A stretch of DNA of 42,242 bases, taken from IMG/VR virus record IMGVR_UViG_2657245570_000016; one strand, written 5' to 3'. The position numbers and the translations under genes were made by a program. Below the pieces are notes generated by a model that did no database searches, had not been told where the DNA came from, and was given only the letters and a program-made list of their open reading frames with translations. Positions 3,525 to 41,674 of this stretch are shown here, one piece after another. The DNA comes from a virus. Its lineage: Duplodnaviria; Heunggongvirae; Uroviricota; Caudoviricetes. Each line of letters starts with the position of its first letter. The first letter of the stretch is position 1.

Positions 3525-4442
3525 TTATAATAGTGCTGTTACTATTGCATCTTTAAAAATATTTTCTTCTTCATTTATTAAAGGTGATGACAGATGAATA
3601 ATTACTTCTTTTCCTGTCAATACTATTTGCTCGACTTGAAATCCTGCGTTGTGTAGTCTTTGGCGTAACTTTTCTAGTGCTGATTTTGATATACTAAATC
3701 CTTCACTCCTTATAGTATAACTGGCAACTCCATTTTTAATAATATCTACAGAGTTGTCAATTTCCTGCTGCGAGTAATTTTTCGGTGAGTCGAAAAATCT
3801 GGATTTTGTCGTTGCTGTTGCCCTAAGAGATATCAATAATGATTTGATATCTTTAATCTCAGATGCCAGATACTCAGTTTCTGATACTTCTTTCTGGTCT
3901 AGTTGTGCAACTTTGAAAGTGCCAAAATGTTTGAGGAATGTTGTGTATTCAGGATCAGTTACTGACTTTAAATATGTTTCTTTTATCTTGCTCGCAAGTC
4001 TTTCTTTGAATAAATTGATTGATTGGTATCTTAAATCCGAAGGGTACTCTAAATGTTCAATTGATGAAATGTCAAAGCTATAAGGAGTGCGCTCGTCCTT
4101 AATAATTACGGTCGGTTTGTCAAATGCGAGACGCATTCCTAATTCAAACATTACATTAGCGTTTCGAGCACTTATATCGCAAACAACTATGGGGTTTTCA
4201 TAAAGATTTTGAACAATTCGTTTTTGTATTACTGCAACATCATCATCTGAACTTACCAAATTTGCCTTGAATCCGGCATCATTTGATGCTTCACAAATAA
4301 TGTCATGAACATTTCTCCAATGTCCAGTGGGATAACCTTCTATGTCCGCAATTGGCATAATAATGCCGCATATATGAGGTGGCATATTTTTGTTGTCTTT
4401 TACATCATCTTGGTTTATTTCTTTCGTTTGTTGCTTAGCCAT
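3525..4442 (-). CDS. Hypothetical protein: N-terminal TIR-like / nucleoside 2-deoxyribosyltransferase-like domain plus C-terminal domain of unknown function (about 170 aa)
   Basis: N-terminal ICGIIMPIA...IVVCDISARNANVMFELGMRLAFDKPTVIIKD...SFDISSIEHLEY resembles the conserved core (R.xNV.FE.G ... pSD..G..Y) of TIR-like/deoxyribosyltransferase-like folds. Visibly AT-rich relative to neighbours; good AGGAG Shine-Dalgarno before the ATG at 4440-4442. Confidence 0.5.
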   Translation of the reverse strand: MAKQQTKEINQDDVKDNKNMPPHICGIIMPIADIEGYPTGHWRNVHDIICEASNDAGFKANLVSSDDDVAVIQKRIVQNLYENPIVVCDISARNANVMFELGMRLAFDKPTVIIKDERTPYSFDISSIEHLEYPSDLRYQSINLFKERLASKIKETYLKSVTDPEYTTFLKHFGTFKVAQLDQKEVSETEYLASEIKDIKSLLISLRATATTKSRFFDSPKNYSQQEIDNSVDIIKNGVASYTIRSEGFSISKSALEKLRQRLHNAGFQVEQIVLTGKEVIIHLSSPLINEEENIFKDAIVTALL

Positions 4443-4457
4443 AGCTTACACAGACTC

Positions 4458-4742
4458 CTATTGTAATTTTTTGCCTAATATACATGAAAGCTCCTTACTA
4501 TCCAGTACTACCACGGTAAAGCCCAGTTTTCGCAGACGTTCATGCTCGCGCAACTGATCAGGTCGTGGTGGTTTGCCTGGTGCTTTGCATTCGACAAAGA
4601 CGATGCGACCGCCGGGTAGCAGAACAATGCGATCTGGTACCGAGCGGAGACCGGGAGATACGAACTTAAAGGCAACCCCGCCAGCCTTTTTTACTTCAGC
4701 GACGAGGTGCTTTTCGATTAGGTTTTCACGTTCATAGGCCAT
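4458..4742 (-). CDS. VRR-NUC domain nuclease (PD-(D/E)XK fold)
   Basis: VPDRIVLLPGGRIVFVECKAPGKPPRPDQL contains the PD...E-C-K catalytic arrangement of VRR-NUC proteins; commonly found beside SNF2 helicases in phages. Confidence 0.8.
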   Translation of the reverse strand: MAYERENLIEKHLVAEVKKAGGVAFKFVSPGLRSVPDRIVLLPGGRIVFVECKAPGKPPRPDQLREHERLRKLGFTVVVLDSKELSCILGKKLQ

Positions 4743-4936
4743 TAGCTTTCGCCTTCCTGCTTTTTGCGTTTCTTCATGCAGATAGCGCAGTTCTCAGGAT
4801 GGTCATGCCATTCGTCAATCCTGATACCTGTGAACATCCATTTTCCGCATAGTGATATGGCTTCCCCCGAATTAAAGAAATGTGCTTTTTTCGACAGGGC
4901 GGGGAACCCCCAACCTTTATTATCGATATTAGACAT
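4742..4936 (-). CDS. Small putative zinc-binding phage protein
   Basis: 64 aa with C-x12-H-x-H-x5-C-x2-C spacing (LCGKW...WHDHPENCAIC) and a basic tail; its stop overlaps the VRR-NUC start (TAATG on the minus strand). Confidence 0.45.
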   Translation of the reverse strand: MSNIDNKGWGFPALSKKAHFFNSGEAISLCGKWMFTGIRIDEWHDHPENCAICMKKRKKQEGES

Positions 4937-5120
4937 CGTCCACCTCCTTACGCTTTTCGCGCATGTTCTGCATCAGACAAAAATCAAACCGACGTTCGCT
5001 TTGGCCCAGACCTGCATCGCCCGGTCGTACCCGCTGGACTGTTCAAGGCGCAAAGCCTCCCGTGCAGTCCGGTAATAAAGCGGACTGTCCCGGTATTTAA
5101 ATGACATAGGGTTTTTATTC

Positions 5121-5147
5121 CCAAATAAAAAACCCCGCAATGCAGGG
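5121..5147 (-). terminator. Rho-independent terminator-like hairpin read on the minus strand
   Basis: Minus-strand RNA would form CCCUGC-AUU-GCGGGG (6-bp stem with one G-U pair) followed by UUUUUUAUUU. It lies about 25 nt downstream of the stop of the 5172..5933 gene. Confidence 0.5.
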
Positions 5148-5171
5148 TTGTAATCAACAATAAGGGGGTAA

Positions 5172-5933
5172 TTACGAGGAAGCGTTAGCTATTTGAGCTT
5201 GTGTAAATTCGAAACCAGAATTTTGTAACCGTTGCACTAGACGAGGAACTGTTTCACGTACATGGTCGTTGAAATTCAGATACAAAATCCCGTTAGCATC
5301 AGAAGGCTGTTCTAGGTGCTGTTTCTGAAGGATTGCTACATTGCTGCGCCCTAAGGACGAAAGAAGCATACCCATCTCGAGTACAACGTTCTGTCTTGCG
5401 CGGGGTTGGATTTCTGCTTCACCGGCGCGCTTTGAGTATCCCATATCATCAGGTGTCAAAAGAACAATCCCGAAACGAGTAGCAGTTTGTCCTTGCCCAA
5501 TTTCACGTTCAAGCTCTTCAATAATGGTGAGTCCAGTCCCTCCCGTATTCTGCAAAATGAAATGGTCTGGTAATCCAAGTTTATGAAGGATTAGCTCAAG
5601 TTGTTCCTTTGCAGTATGGTCATGGCCGTGAACAATGAATATCTTTTTGGGAAGCTCAGATGGCTGTTCTACGGCTAGTGGTGTTGCCGTGGGGGGCGTT
5701 CCTAAATGGGACATTATTGCAGTTTCAACATTGGGACGTTCTTGAGGGTTCCCTTGAAACTGAATGGTCCGGGTGGTGTAAAGGTTAACAATTACGCCAT
5801 TCGTTAAACGATAGCAGTCATAAGTCTCACGCTGTTCGTGGGAAAAATTGGTGAACCCACACTCCCTCAAAAAGTCAGGAAAAGATTCTCTCGGGTATGG
5901 ATAGTTGATCGGCATTTCAGTTAGTTCCTGCAT
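5172..5933 (-). CDS. Hypothetical protein: N-terminal domain of unknown function (about 90 aa) plus C-terminal TIR-like domain (Cap12/PycTIR-type predicted nucleotide-binding fold)
   Basis: C-terminal KKIFIVHGHDH...FGIVLLTPDD...RARQNVVLEMGMLLSSLGRSNVAILQK...PSDANGILYL matches my recollection of the TIR-like consensus (FIvHG ... TPDD ... RaRqNVvfElG ... pSD..G..y). GC content looks lower than the flanking pol gene. AAAGGA Shine-Dalgarno before the ATG. Confidence 0.55.
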   Translation of the reverse strand: MQELTEMPINYPYPRESFPDFLRECGFTNFSHEQRETYDCYRLTNGVIVNLYTTRTIQFQGNPQERPNVETAIMSHLGTPPTATPLAVEQPSELPKKIFIVHGHDHTAKEQLELILHKLGLPDHFILQNTGGTGLTIIEELEREIGQGQTATRFGIVLLTPDDMGYSKRAGEAEIQPRARQNVVLEMGMLLSSLGRSNVAILQKQHLEQPSDANGILYLNFNDHVRETVPRLVQRLQNSGFEFTQAQIANASS

Positions 5934-5997
5934 AAGTATTGTTCCTTTAATTTACTCGAATTCAGCATGTCGCCATAGCTCGATAAGGTGAGTTATA

Positions 5998-8061
5998 TCA
6001 ATCTTTTTTGTAGTGGTACGCCTCAAAGCCGCCAGCGTTCAGCGGAATATCGGGTGCCCATTCGGGGTTAGTGGAGAGAAGCGCGGAAAGCGCTTTATCG
6101 TTGAAATCTTCTGTGTCTGGTGCTTCGGTGATCACCTCGTCGTGTACCGTTAGCACAATGCTGTAACCGGCACCCTCGATCAGCGGCATGTTTCTGGCTA
6201 GAACGTCGCGGGCGGCCGCCTGGGTGACGTTCTCCACCAGCTTTCCGCCGTAGGTTTTGAGTCGTTGCCATTTACGCGAATAAGAGTTAACACCCATGTA
6301 GGTGATATTCCCTTGTTCGATAACCGGAGACGGGTAGCATACAGCGCGTCCGGATGGTAGCTGTATGCGCAGCCACGCGCCATCACGTCGGATTTTAAGA
6401 TAGCCGCAATACAATGTTTTTTGCGGTGTGGCGATTGCTGTGCGGACAGTGCGCTCCAGCTCGTACCAGAAATCGCAGGTCGCCGGGTGCGCCCTGCGCC
6501 ACAGGCGCTTGAGCGAGTCACATGCGATGAATACACGCTCGGACAGGCCAAAGGTCGACTTACGCTTAACCGATTCGTCGTACCAGCTTTTTGCCTCGCG
6601 GATAACATCGCGGGGAATGTTTGGCAGTGCGGCGTTCGCCAGCTCGTCGAGATCGAGACCGTAAACCAGAGCAAAAGTGATGAAAGCCGATACACCACCT
6701 CCATAACCCAGACCGAGTTCCATGACTTTACCGATCTGACGCATGTGTTTATCAACATCATCTGGTGCAATATCGAAAGCTTTTGCATACGCCAGTTTAT
6801 ATAAGTCCGGACCCGTTCCAGCGTCATACTCTCTGAATGCATTCAGTTTCCATTCTTCTCCCGCCAGCCATGCCAGCATACGGCCTTCAATGTTTGACAA
6901 GTCACTTACCACTAGTTTTTTGCCTGTTGGCGCGATAATGCAGCCACGTAACGCTGAACTGGTTAGTTCCATGATATTGTCAAACAGCAGGTCTGCACAT
7001 CCGGCTTTCAGTGCTTCGATGCCTTCGTCTATTTGTTCCTGTTTTAGTGAAGGGCGGGGAAGGTTCTGGGGCTGGAATAGCCGTCCGGCCCAACGACCGG
7101 TACGTGACGCCCCGCAGAACTGTAGCGTACCGCGTAAGCGCCCGTCGTGGCTTACGCCTTTCATCAGTGCCTTGTATTTACTGGTGCTGGTAGTACTGGC
7201 TTGCAGGCGGATAGCCAGCAGTTCTTTCACGGCAGATGATAAATCGGGGTCGGCCATACGACGTTCCAGGGTACTGCGTTGCATGTCTGGTAGCTCCACA
7301 CCGTAGGATTCAACGATGTGCTTAATCAACGCGTCCCGTTGTGTGGCTGCCTGCACTTCGCCATCAGTCATTTCCTGTGTACGCTTTGCCAGGCGCTTTT
7401 GCTCCTGGTCTACCGCTTCGATCGCAGCGCGCGCGAGTTGCATGTCCATGCAGACGCCCCGGTCGTTGATCTGCTGATCACGATGCCAGAGCGCCAGCTC
7501 TGTCCCCTGATAATTCCACTTCGGCAGACGTTTATAGACTTCACGCATTGCTTCGATATCCAGTCCGGCGTAAGCAACAAAGCGCCGCCATTCTTCCGGA
7601 TGGGTTTTACTGGTGGCCCGACGCAGTTTGCTGTTTTTCGGACGTGGCTTACAGAACAGCTGGATCAGCGCTTTACCTTCTTTGTCCTTCGCTTTGTCTT
7701 GCGGGACGCCTAGTACTTCGCAGAGTTCCCCCAGAGACCCCGGGAGACCGTGCGCCAGCGCCTGCACCATCGTGTCGCGCCAACGTTCGACTGGCGGTGC
7801 CAGTCGCGGCATTGCATAACGCAGAACGGTGCGGTCGAAGTGAGAGTTATGGAAATAAAGCAGGGTTTCAGGGTCTGCGATTGCTTCGTATAAGCCGTGT
7901 GGAATACCACCACCGGCAGTGATATCCCACACGTTTACTGGCCCGTCGTTGATAGCCCATGCGAAAAGCATCACTTCAACGCCTTCGGCATACGCATGGG
8001 TACCGTTCGTAATAGGGATTTCGCAATAGGTTTCCAGGTCGCCCCATAGTATATTGGACAT
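5998..8061 (-). CDS. Family A (Pol I-like) DNA polymerase with N-terminal 3'-5' exonuclease domain
   Basis: 687 aa; N-terminal exonuclease motif (GDLETY) then a long polymerase region; a typical partner of DUF2800/DUF2815/VRR-NUC/SNF2 replication modules. Confidence 0.8.
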
Positions 8062-8107: not shown

Positions 8108-8737
8108 ATGCATATGATCCAATACTTGATTGACCATACAGAGCATCTGGAGAAAATAGCTGGATATATTTTTTCATGTTTGATTGTTATGGGAGTCTGG
8201 ATAAGAAAGATCATTTTTAATTATAAGTATAAAGAGCCTAAATATGTCAAGAAGTTAATTTTATATTTAATTAAGTATGAACGTTATCTGGATAAGGAGG
8301 ATAAGAAAGCCATAGAAAAAAGAATAAATGATAAAATTATTCGTGATGCGCTGAAATTGCAATCCTCTTATAACCGAAGAGATGTTATTTACATTTGCAA
8401 TAGATTAGAAAAAAGACAGTATATAAATCAGTTGATTAAGCTTCAGAATTATATAGAGAAAGATAACGGAGTGTTTTTTATTAATGTTGATTTTTCAGGT
8501 TTTTTATTTATTATTAGTCGTCTGTTTTCCTTTCTGTGTTTTGTGCTGTTTACCCTTTTTTCTATTATCTGCATTATTTCCATAGGGCAAAATGAAGGCC
8601 TTTTAAATTATCTTGTGTATATGGTTATGATAATAGTTTTAGAGACTGTTGGTTTTTGGATGTATGATACTTTCCCGTCTAAGAAAAAGATCTGTGAACT
8701 AAATAAAGAATTGAGAAAGATTAAGATTCCTGAGTGA
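8108..8737 (+). CDS. Hypothetical integral membrane protein (AT-rich moron on the opposite strand)
   Basis: Strongly AT-rich coding sequence. Predicted N-terminal transmembrane helix (IAGYIFSCLIVMGVWI), a Lys/Tyr-rich soluble middle, and two C-terminal hydrophobic helices. Convergent with the flanking early genes. Confidence 0.55.
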   Translation: MHMIQYLIDHTEHLEKIAGYIFSCLIVMGVWIRKIIFNYKYKEPKYVKKLILYLIKYERYLDKEDKKAIEKRINDKIIRDALKLQSSYNRRDVIYICNRLEKRQYINQLIKLQNYIEKDNGVFFINVDFSGFLFIISRLFSFLCFVLFTLFSIICIISIGQNEGLLNYLVYMVMIIVLETVGFWMYDTFPSKKKICELNKELRKIKIPE

Positions 8738-40828: not shown

Positions 40829-41674
40829 CTATTGGCGAAGTGGCCATATTTTTCTGTTTTTTAAAAAACTATCTTCAACTATATAACTGCAACAATGTTC
40901 ACTAAGGCCATAAAAACTAATTATTCCATATTTATGAGAAGCTATATCAGACAGTTCTGCTAATACTGTGGCAAGCCAACGAGCGATGCTAAGAGAATAG
41001 AATCTTCCCCACTTTTGAACAATGGTATTTTGTCCAGTACGGATGGAGGCTGATATAAGGTCTTGCATAATGTTGGTACTTTCATTCATATACATGACCG
41101 TTGTATACGGTGAAAGAGTGGCATTGATAAACCTAGCATTTTCTTCAACACGTCTTTGTTCAACTGTATAATAATAATGTTTTTCAAGGATACTCTCGGC
41201 TACTTCTCCCCACCATTTATTAATAGGTTCATTATTGGTTAAATTGGGGCTGCTTAATGAGGAGAAATTTGCGTAACGTCCCCGTCGGGCATCAGCAAAG
41301 GAATCTAAACATTCAAGTATTTTGTAGGTAATTTTATGTGTAGGACGTGAATATCTCAGAGATAGTTGCATTTTTTTAGAAATACTATCAACCTCGTTGG
41401 TTAATTCAATGAGCTTATGTCCAAATTTTCTTACAATATTCTCATCAGGCATTTTCCCTTTGTGTTCAATGGCATAGTGTGCAACAAGTATTAGTTTAGC
41501 AAGTCTCTCAAAACCTACAGAAAGCCCAAAAAATGCTGTGTAATATTCACCTATTTTGTCTGCATAATTGGCTTTACCTATGGCTGTTGCCCCAGAACCA
41601 ATGAGCTGTGTAACTAAAGATGCTTCTCGGCCCAGAGCGTGCCATGCTGGAATATCCCAGGGATTTTTATTCAC
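40829..41674 (-). CDS. Hypothetical protein (281 aa), AT-rich cargo gene
   Basis: Long ORF in visibly AT-rich DNA; no motif I can assign confidently. Confidence 0.5.
   Translation of the reverse strand: MNKNPWDIPAWHALGREASLVTQLIGSGATAIGKANYADKIGEYYTAFFGLSVGFERLAKLILVAHYAIEHKGKMPDENIVRKFGHKLIELTNEVDSISKKMQLSLRYSRPTHKITYKILECLDSFADARRGRYANFSSLSSPNLTNNEPINKWWGEVAESILEKHYYYTVEQRRVEENARFINATLSPYTTVMYMNESTNIMQDLISASIRTGQNTIVQKWGRFYSLSIARWLATVLAELSDIASHKYGIISFYGLSEHCCSYIVEDSFLKNRKIWPLRQ

Follow-up and report, generated by a model that had tools for sequence, protein, structure and literature searches.

A prophage-borne TIR protein of Escherichia coli with a putative TBP-like N-terminal domain and some relatives operonic with RNase HI

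The window—the whole 42,242-nucleotide stretch of DNA analyzed here—is an Escherichia coli prophage integrated beside yfhL. Apart from the gene described below, its genes are those of replication, lysis, and the virion, as annotated by RefSeq in an identical E. coli region. The window ORF list gives an ATG-to-stop frame of 253 aa at 5172..5933 on the minus strand (Table 1). The earlier note had reported an ORF of this length and position; coordinates and length stand, and the strand, which it left unstated, is minus. Every peptide quoted in that note is found in the translation: VIVNLYTTRTIQFQG at aa 47–61, FIVHG at aa 99–103, TPDD at aa 160–163, RARQNVVLEMG at aa 178–188, and PSDANGILY at aa 210–218. 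That the frame is not a chance ORF follows from its match to PF10137 at 108.4 bits (cut-off 24.7) and from a homologue search that returned 2703 matches with lengths near 250 aa.

The expression signals read from the letters are both present. The gene has its own Shine–Dalgarno sequence (AAGGA, 5943–5947), 9 nt before the ATG, and a terminator-like hairpin of 8 pairs, 5 of them G-C, lies 23 nt past the stop (5149..5131, minus strand) and is followed by a T-run. M7 is a possible alternative start, and some homologues begin there. A sigma-70 scan found no promoter-like site directly upstream of the TIR gene at the scan threshold.

Table 1. Coordinates of the TIR gene, its domains, and its flanking signals in the window
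Feature	Position	Strand	Basis
TBP-like/TIR CDS	5172..5933	-	ORF list; RefSeq WP_001551506.1 "TIR domain-containing protein"; PDC-S35; PHROG 16442
Putative N-terminal TBP-like domain, aa 10–77, beta-alpha-beta4-alpha	5703..5906	-	
Flexible linker, aa 78–96	5646..5702	-	pLDDT <50 at aa 80–93; gapped and variable in homologue alignment
CAP12/PycTIR-type TIR domain, aa 97–222	5268..5645	-	PF10137, Foldseek, and PDB-chain profile matches
E186 codon, predicted catalytic glutamate (NVVLEMG)	5376..5378	-	Alignment to Cap12 NVVFEFG
Shine–Dalgarno AAGGA, 9 nt 5' of ATG	5943..5947	-	Read from sequence
Intrinsic-terminator-like hairpin AACCCTGCATTGCGGGGTT, then TTTTATTT	5121..5149	-	Terminator scan
Inserted cargo module (RBS + gene + terminator)	5114..6009	-	blastn vs. 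empty-site prophage; GC

The TIR gene sits among the replication genes and shares the strand of its neighbors. Comparison of related prophages shows that what lies between the genes for the DNA polymerase and an ANR-family regulator varies, and this is the slot that the TIR gene occupies. The slot is empty in strain B379, where 5 nt separate the two backbone genes; the BH100 prophage carries a 68-aa ORF there instead of the TIR gene, and the ECZP248 prophage a divergent allele of it. When the window is aligned by blastn with the empty site of B379 (L020), homology ends at 5113 and restarts at 6010, with ~10 nt in B379 at that point. This break delimits a cargo module of ~0.9 kb that comprises the RBS, the gene, and the terminator, with a GC content of ~45% vs. 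54–58% for the flanking genes. The terminator precedes the backbone genes that adjoin the polymerase gene in empty-site phages. Neighboring slots in the same phage family hold methyltransferases and DUF4406 genes. The neighboring ORF at 3525–4442 was considered as a partner and set aside: It is missing from several prophages that bear the TIR gene. A PDB sequence search with it gave no useful match.

The module is sporadic in E. coli. The gene is present in 47 of 5,426 complete genomes (~1%), 37 with a close and 10 with a divergent allele. Its region recurs at 100% identity in many complete E. coli genomes, as well as in the phages vB_EcoM-689R2, vB_EcoM-611R5, and vB_EcoM-606R2.

The C-terminal domain is a PF10137-family TIR domain of the Cap12/PycTIR type, the assignment that the earlier note had made from motifs in the sequence. 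PF10137 (CAP12/Pycsar effector TIR domain) matches aa 97–222 (E 2.9e-31) across positions 1–118 of its 119-position profile, and the conserved region runs beyond aa 222 to the C terminus. A profile of 34 homologues matches chains of Cap12 (7un8 and 9lmq) and PycTIR (8jsj) in the PDB. Foldseek with an AF2 model, in which confidence for the TIR part is only moderate, returned TIR-STING structures as its top matches (9lmq, 9lmr, and 7un8; E 7.5e-6 to 1e-3), and SPARTA TIRs were among the further matches.

A predicted catalytic glutamate, for which the earlier note proposed to look, is present. E186, the Glu of NVVLEMG, is aligned in 9lmq and 7un8 with the Glu of NVVFEFG. Counting residues identifies the latter as ElSTING E86, described as catalytic and inactive as the E86A mutant. 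E186 is unchanged in all 75 sequences of a conservation set (the window protein plus 74 relatives at species level, drawn from many phyla), as are ~25 further TIR positions, at ~50% overall identity. We predict that the domain would hydrolyze NAD+ once TIRs gather in ordered assemblies.

Family membership of the TIR domain does not make the protein Cap12 or PycTIR in the system sense, because it has no STING, SAVED, or cNMP-binding domain, falls far below the NCBIfam Cap12 cut-off (35 vs. 450 bits), and has no cyclase partner. The TBP-like N-domain is the sole other domain in the 253-aa protein; its scores for the NCBIfam Cap12 equivalogs are 34.8 and 30.5 bits, where 450 would be required, and the PADLOC PycTIR model matches the TIR part alone (E 1e-8). 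No nucleotide cyclase is annotated anywhere in the window (RefSeq, identical region), and Pfam and PADLOC scans of its unnamed ORFs revealed none. The earlier note's view that no cyclase lies nearby holds for the whole window, and no cyclase family recurs among 577 neighboring ORFs of 77 related loci. Activation by a cyclic nucleotide, which that note had kept in play, finds no support, given that no STING, SAVED, or cNMP-binding domain is present. Three known systems were compared and rejected on these grounds: a CBASS Cap12 effector (no STING/SAVED domain, no CD-NTase operon in the window, and no cyclase-like family recurrent near the 77 relatives), a Pycsar PycTIR (no cNMP-binding domain and no adjacent pyrimidine cyclase), and Thoeris-like two-gene signaling (no ThsA-like or other effector family recurrent near the 77 loci). 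In the architecture of CBASS and Pycsar effectors, the place held by STING, SAVED, or cNMP-binding domains is here taken by the TBP-like domain.

The N-terminal ~90 aa had been left unassigned in the earlier note, with the suggestion of a sensor or targeting role; the present analysis supports that suggestion and gives the region a putative identity. [quoted passage not shown] Between this domain and the TIR lies a low-confidence, length-variable linker rich in P/A/T. Profile searches point the same way at low scores. The N-domain profile weakly matches RNase HIII (E 0.029) and the LsoA NRD (E 0.037) in the PDB, and the window protein matches PF15935 at E 0.023, under the Pfam threshold. Among 28 homologues, 12 match PF15935 (RnlA; best 8.9e-5) and 4 match PF11858 (best 0.0042), all sub-threshold. 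These weak PDB and Pfam matches converge on RNase HIII and LsoA/RnlA, and we name the region, from its modeled fold and these sub-threshold similarities, a putative TBP-like domain of the RNase HIII-N/RnlA-NRD type.

Conservation within the N-domain concentrates on residues that in RNase H3 touch the ligand. The most conserved positions form the motif aromatic52-x-T54-G55-T56-x3-Q60-G61, retained among 75 sequences as an aromatic residue in 73, T/S in 57, G in 66, T/S in 66, Q in 74, and G in 73. In Thermovibrio ammonificans RNase H3, the contacts to the hybrid are Y43, S45, S47, and G52, and the isolated N-domain bound RNA/DNA hybrid only (PMC4132731). The motif in the window protein (Y52, T54, T56, Q60, and G61, with R55 in place of the motif G) has the spacing of these contacts, and an alignment with Aquifex aeolicus RNase HIII sets the corresponding positions directly opposite one another. 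Binding of RnlA to its RNA substrate requires the equivalent domain, TBP1 (PMC8266594). The enterobacterial prophage clade to which the window protein belongs departs from the consensus at several conserved positions, where Y13 replaces G, C40 replaces Q, L51 replaces W, and R55 replaces G, so its ligand may differ.

The N-domain is also found on other proteins. An exhaustive search with an N-domain-only profile gave 796 cluster representatives at E <= 1e-3, comprising TIR fusions and many fragments, along with a few other architectures. In P0249 (617 aa), the N-domain precedes a match to the PADLOC defense dCTP deaminase (E 7e-173; positions 142–552 of the 630-position model) and a Pfam deaminase domain; P0217 (267 aa, possibly truncated) matches the N-terminal part of the same model; in P0242 (428 aa), the N-domain is followed by a long hydrophobic stretch that apparently crosses the membrane several times; P0178 carries a C-terminal region of no assigned family; and P0229 has two tandem N-domain copies. 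In defense proteins, the pairing of one input domain with several different outputs usually marks a sensor or regulatory module.

Gene neighborhoods of the relatives tie the family to RNase HI. We clustered the 577 ORFs within four genes of 77 loci, and only one neighbor family recurs in more than four of them: RNase HI, at 11 of the 77 species loci. Its gene lies directly downstream of the TIR gene on the same strand, with an ATG that overlaps or abuts the TIR stop (TGATG or TAATG). The translationally coupled loci belong to Verrucomicrobiota (3), Chloroflexota (7), and Vicinamibacterales of the Acidobacteriota (1). The neighbor is identified by PF00075 (E about 1e-43 to 1e-46), and its catalytic residues are present in the sequences. 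The flanks of the 11 loci are non-syntenic and their TIR proteins are 48–79% identical, so the pair behaves as a conserved two-gene module. Smaller recurrent families include type I RM subunits and integrases.

A connection between a TBP-like domain and RNase HI has been described for RnlA. RNase HI associates with the RnlA NRD, which is TBP-like, as seen in extract pull-downs and not in vitro, and it is required both for activation of RnlA and for RnlB-mediated repression of RnlA (PMC5308261). This dependence was reported in 2014, and its mechanism was still unexplained in 2017.

The family as such is already catalogued, as the candidate PDC-S35. The PADLOC profile of that name (PDLC05003) matches the full-length protein at E 1.2e-108, with aa 10–253 on profile positions 3–245 of 245, and the protein also falls, at E 7.5e-107, in PHROG 16442, a family with no assigned function. 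The PDCs are 145 candidates listed as untested by Payne et al., chosen because they lie within loci of BREX, DISARM, or type I RM (guilt-by-embedding; bioRxiv 10.1101/2024.01.29.577857). Our loci include such cases: L100 reads HsdM-HsdS-[TIR]-x-HsdR, confirmed by Pfam, and L095, L075, and L094 show similar type I RM embedding; the window copy sits in a prophage slot, outside any RM locus. Literature searches turned up neither a mention of PDC-S35 nor a description of the TBP-like/TIR architecture, and no report of what the N-domain is, of its recurrence on other defense effectors, or of the operon link to RNase HI.

Relatives are sporadic and widely scattered, and individual look-ups place them in varied mobile contexts. 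With one genome scanned per species, they appear in 237 of 185,579 species, among Proteobacteria, Acidobacteriota, Verrucomicrobiota, Chloroflexota, Planctomycetota, Bacteroidota, Cyanobacteria, and other phyla. Both domains lie in one ORF at 74 of the 77 loci with a callable ORF. IMG/VR holds 152 viral contigs with a relative, ~45 of them full length, and GenBank phage records only 4 out of 50,697. A Vibrio cholerae relative adjoins an integrase and a TrwC relaxase, one from an uncultured bacterium lies in an integrase-adjacent island with Mrr and PemK, a Vicinamibacterales relative is on a conjugative (T4SS-bearing) element, and others stand beside IS transposases. Serratia and Salmonella relatives occupy other slots of related prophages.

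Comparison with characterized systems places the protein among several of them. It shares with CBASS Cap12 (SfSTING 7un8; ElSTING 9lmq/9lmr) the PF10137 domain, the N-V-V-x-E-x-G glutamate, and the best structural matches; Cap12, however, has a STING domain and a CD-NTase operon, whereas the window protein has an N-terminal TBP-like sensor candidate. PycTIR (8jsj) is likewise a PF10137 TIR effector, but one with a cNMP-binding domain and a pyrimidine cyclase, both missing here. [quoted passage not shown] They are mobile-element-borne, require their catalytic residue, and give an abortive-infection type phenotype; their triggers are phage proteins, and none has been described with a TBP-like domain or a link to RNase HI. 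A survey of E. coli TIR proteins (Wang et al. 2024) assayed 32 clusters, and the present protein may be among them.

Other parallels concern the candidate sensor. SPARTA (short Argonaute with TIR-APAZ) offers a similar concept, in which a guide RNA/target DNA duplex leads to TIR oligomerization and NAD+ depletion, although there an Argonaute recognizes sequence, whereas here a small TBP-like domain would read the type of duplex. RnlA/LsoA (TBP1-TBP2-HEPN) shares the domain type, an anti-phage role, and the tie to RNase HI through the NRD, but carries a HEPN RNase under the control of the RnlB antitoxin where the window protein has a TIR. The N-domain of RNase HIII (DUF3378, PF11858) is the best fold match and shares the hybrid-contact motif Y-x-[ST]-G-[ST]-x3-Q-G; it belongs to a housekeeping enzyme, in which an RNase H catalytic domain is attached to it, and the sequence similarity is below the Pfam threshold. 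In some members of the defense dCTP deaminase family (PADLOC dCTPase), P0249 and P0217, the N-domain stands before a kinase-like/deaminase body, and the output is depletion of dCTP, vs. the NAD+ predicted for the TIR protein.

We consider it moderately probable that the gene encodes a stand-alone, one-protein sensor-effector defense module of the abortive-infection type, carried as cargo by a temperate E. coli phage. In the mechanism that we infer, the N-domains would bind a nucleic-acid polymer during infection, with RNA/DNA hybrids as the most plausible cue, and several protomers would align along it. The TIR domains, each tethered to its N-terminal sensor by the flexible linker, would then assemble—activation by ordered assembly being suggested by TIR-STING filaments and SPARTA—and deplete NAD+, halting phage growth and so protecting against the phage. 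RNase HI, host-supplied in E. coli and in some relatives the product of an operon partner, may act as a safeguard by keeping self hybrids low, and would thereby set the threshold. RNA/DNA hybrids as the trigger are a tentative proposal, put forward as one possibility.

The same architecture and effector could instead serve a sensor for a phage protein, for example a portal or tail fiber, rather than for nucleic acid. Other single-protein TIR systems of E. coli do answer to phage portal or tail-fiber proteins, but a protein trigger leaves the operon link to RNase HI (11 of 77 loci) hard to account for; the top conserved residues of the N-domain fall on the motif through which RNase H3 contacts nucleic acid, and both characterized relatives of the domain, RNase H3 and RnlA, bind nucleic acid. 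We regard a protein trigger as unlikely. Three further readings are less likely. One keeps the nucleic acid and changes the output: The TBP-like domain would bring a TIR-type N-glycosidase or nuclease to RNA/DNA hybrids together with RNase HI, and NAD+ depletion would not be the result; its role would be processing or that of a nucleic-acid-directed toxin. Some plant TIRs act on nucleic acids, the RNase HI encoded in the operons of Chloroflexota, Verrucomicrobiota, and Acidobacteriota retains its catalytic residues, and the role of the domain in RNase HIII and RnlA is to place substrates for a catalytic domain. We nevertheless find this reading improbable, since the distribution is sporadic and mobile (237 of 185,579 species; 47 of 5,426 E. 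coli), the closest characterized TIRs are NADases, and a long flexible linker is better suited to tethering a sensor than to clamping a substrate in place.

The remaining two readings concern whom the protein serves and what switches it on. As a counter-defense or takeover enzyme in lytic growth, it would benefit the phage by destroying NAD-derived immune signals or remodeling nucleotide pools, and it is consistent with this that the gene lies within the replication cluster on the common strand with no promoter detected, that methyltransferases and DUF4406 occupy neighboring slots, and that relatives occur on 152 IMG/VR viral contigs. Most relatives, however, are cellular, including those in type I RM operons and non-phage islands, with only 4 among the 50,697 phage records, and the catalytic site is that of the clade of NAD-depleting effectors; a phage-serving role therefore strikes us as quite improbable. 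An orphan CBASS or Pycsar effector, fed a cyclic nucleotide by a cyclase elsewhere in the host genome, is by far the least credible. The TIR does belong to the Cap12/PycTIR Pfam family, and one TIR-SAVED effector has been reported active without its own cyclase, but the protein has no STING, SAVED, or cNMP-binding domain to receive such a signal and scores 35 bits against the NCBIfam Cap12 cut-off of 450, and no cyclase is found in the window or recurs among the 577 ORFs near the 77 loci.

TIR NADase effectors with various sensors are well known. As to how stand-alone TIRs detect infection, the family suggests a concrete hypothesis that would be cheap to test: A 70-residue sensor domain that binds hybrids, with RNase HI as its safeguard. 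It is backed by the operon link in three phyla and by the presence of the N-domain on other defense effectors. Should the hybrid hypothesis be wrong, the gene would be an ordinary catalogued candidate defense gene, PDC-S35, carried as prophage cargo. A broader reading, which we offer as doubtful, is that the TBP-like domain may be a portable bacterial receptor for phage-made RNA/DNA hybrids of the R-loop type, with RNase HI as negative regulator and several effectors. The hybrids would arise in phage replication or transcription, and the outputs would comprise the TIR NADase, dCTP deaminase, membrane effectors, and the HEPN RNase of RnlA/LsoA. If true, such a receptor would account for the RNase HI dependence of RnlA and would constitute a branch of bacterial innate immunity that senses nucleic-acid structure.

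Prophages of this family have at least three cargo slots in their replication module (window 4400–6100 and loci L018–L021). Slot 1, between the DNA polymerase and ANR-family regulator genes, holds the TIR gene—encoding the 253-aa protein with an N-terminal TBP-like domain and a PF10137 TIR domain—or a 68-aa ORF, or is empty. Slot 2, between the ANR-family and VRR-NUC genes, contains DUF4406, a class I SAM methyltransferase, or DUF7446, and in the window a 64-aa ORF; slot 3, between VRR-NUC and SNF2, is variable and carries ORF305, a Dcm methyltransferase, or others. The ANR-family gene is a frameshifted pseudogene according to the annotation of the identical RefSeq region, and in related prophages it is intact.

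Positions of the ORFs and the regulator gene in the window
Feature	Window position	Strand	GC	Location
ORF305 (305 aa)	3525-4442	-	34%	Slot 3
64-aa ORF	4742-4936			Slot 2
ANR-family regulator gene	4929-5107	-		Immediately downstream of the TIR-gene terminator
209-aa ORF	8108-8737	+	29%	Between DNA polymerase and DUF2815 genes, opposite strand
281-aa ORF (GTG start)	40829-41674	-		Prophage far end, past the tail-fibre and invertase-remnant region

ORF305 lies ~730 bp from the TIR gene and matched no Pfam family above threshold. Its own family is very large (4466 matches), with conservation in the N-terminal ~200 aa and variation at the C-terminus; the "RNA helicase" label on some members is a mislabelling. 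Weak similarity to TIR proteins was recorded against PF10137 (E 0.011), against a PADLOC TIR effector (1.1e-6, classed weak), and by hhalign against the TIR family (32% probability), where NVMFELG and HLEYPSD of ORF305 align opposite NVVLEMG and HLEQPSD. These weak matches suggest that ORF305 may contain a second, remote TIR-like domain. Co-presence of ORF305 and the TIR gene is not constant.

Neither the 209-aa nor the 281-aa ORF has Pfam or PADLOC matches. The former contains hydrophobic segments, matches PHROG 10579 (unknown function), and looks like a separate moron; in a Serratia prophage, a DUF4145 protein is encoded at the corresponding site. The far end of a prophage, where the latter lies, is a typical place for lysogen-expressed cargo.

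A search of the plasmid collection returned 1160 records, mostly from Klebsiella and Escherichia, whose encoded proteins match the 253-aa protein in its TIR part only, at <60% identity, and are annotated "nucleotide-binding protein." They seem to form a distinct PF10137 family that is abundant on plasmids and differs at the N-terminus.

Elsewhere, the TBP-TIR gene is translationally coupled to an RNase HI gene at position +1 through a stop/start overlap (TGATG or TAATG), at loci L026, L069, L072, L080, L082, L088, L089, L090, L093, L098, and L102. Coupled pairs were found in Verrucomicrobiota, Chloroflexota, and Vicinamibacterales, and synteny is absent from their flanks.

The TBP-like domain also occurs on other proteins retrieved with that domain alone, preceding a defence-type dCTP deaminase (P0249 and P0217), an apparently multi-pass membrane region (P0242), or an unassigned domain (P0178). 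In one further protein (P0229) it forms a tandem pair, which resembles the NTD-NRD arrangement of RnlA.
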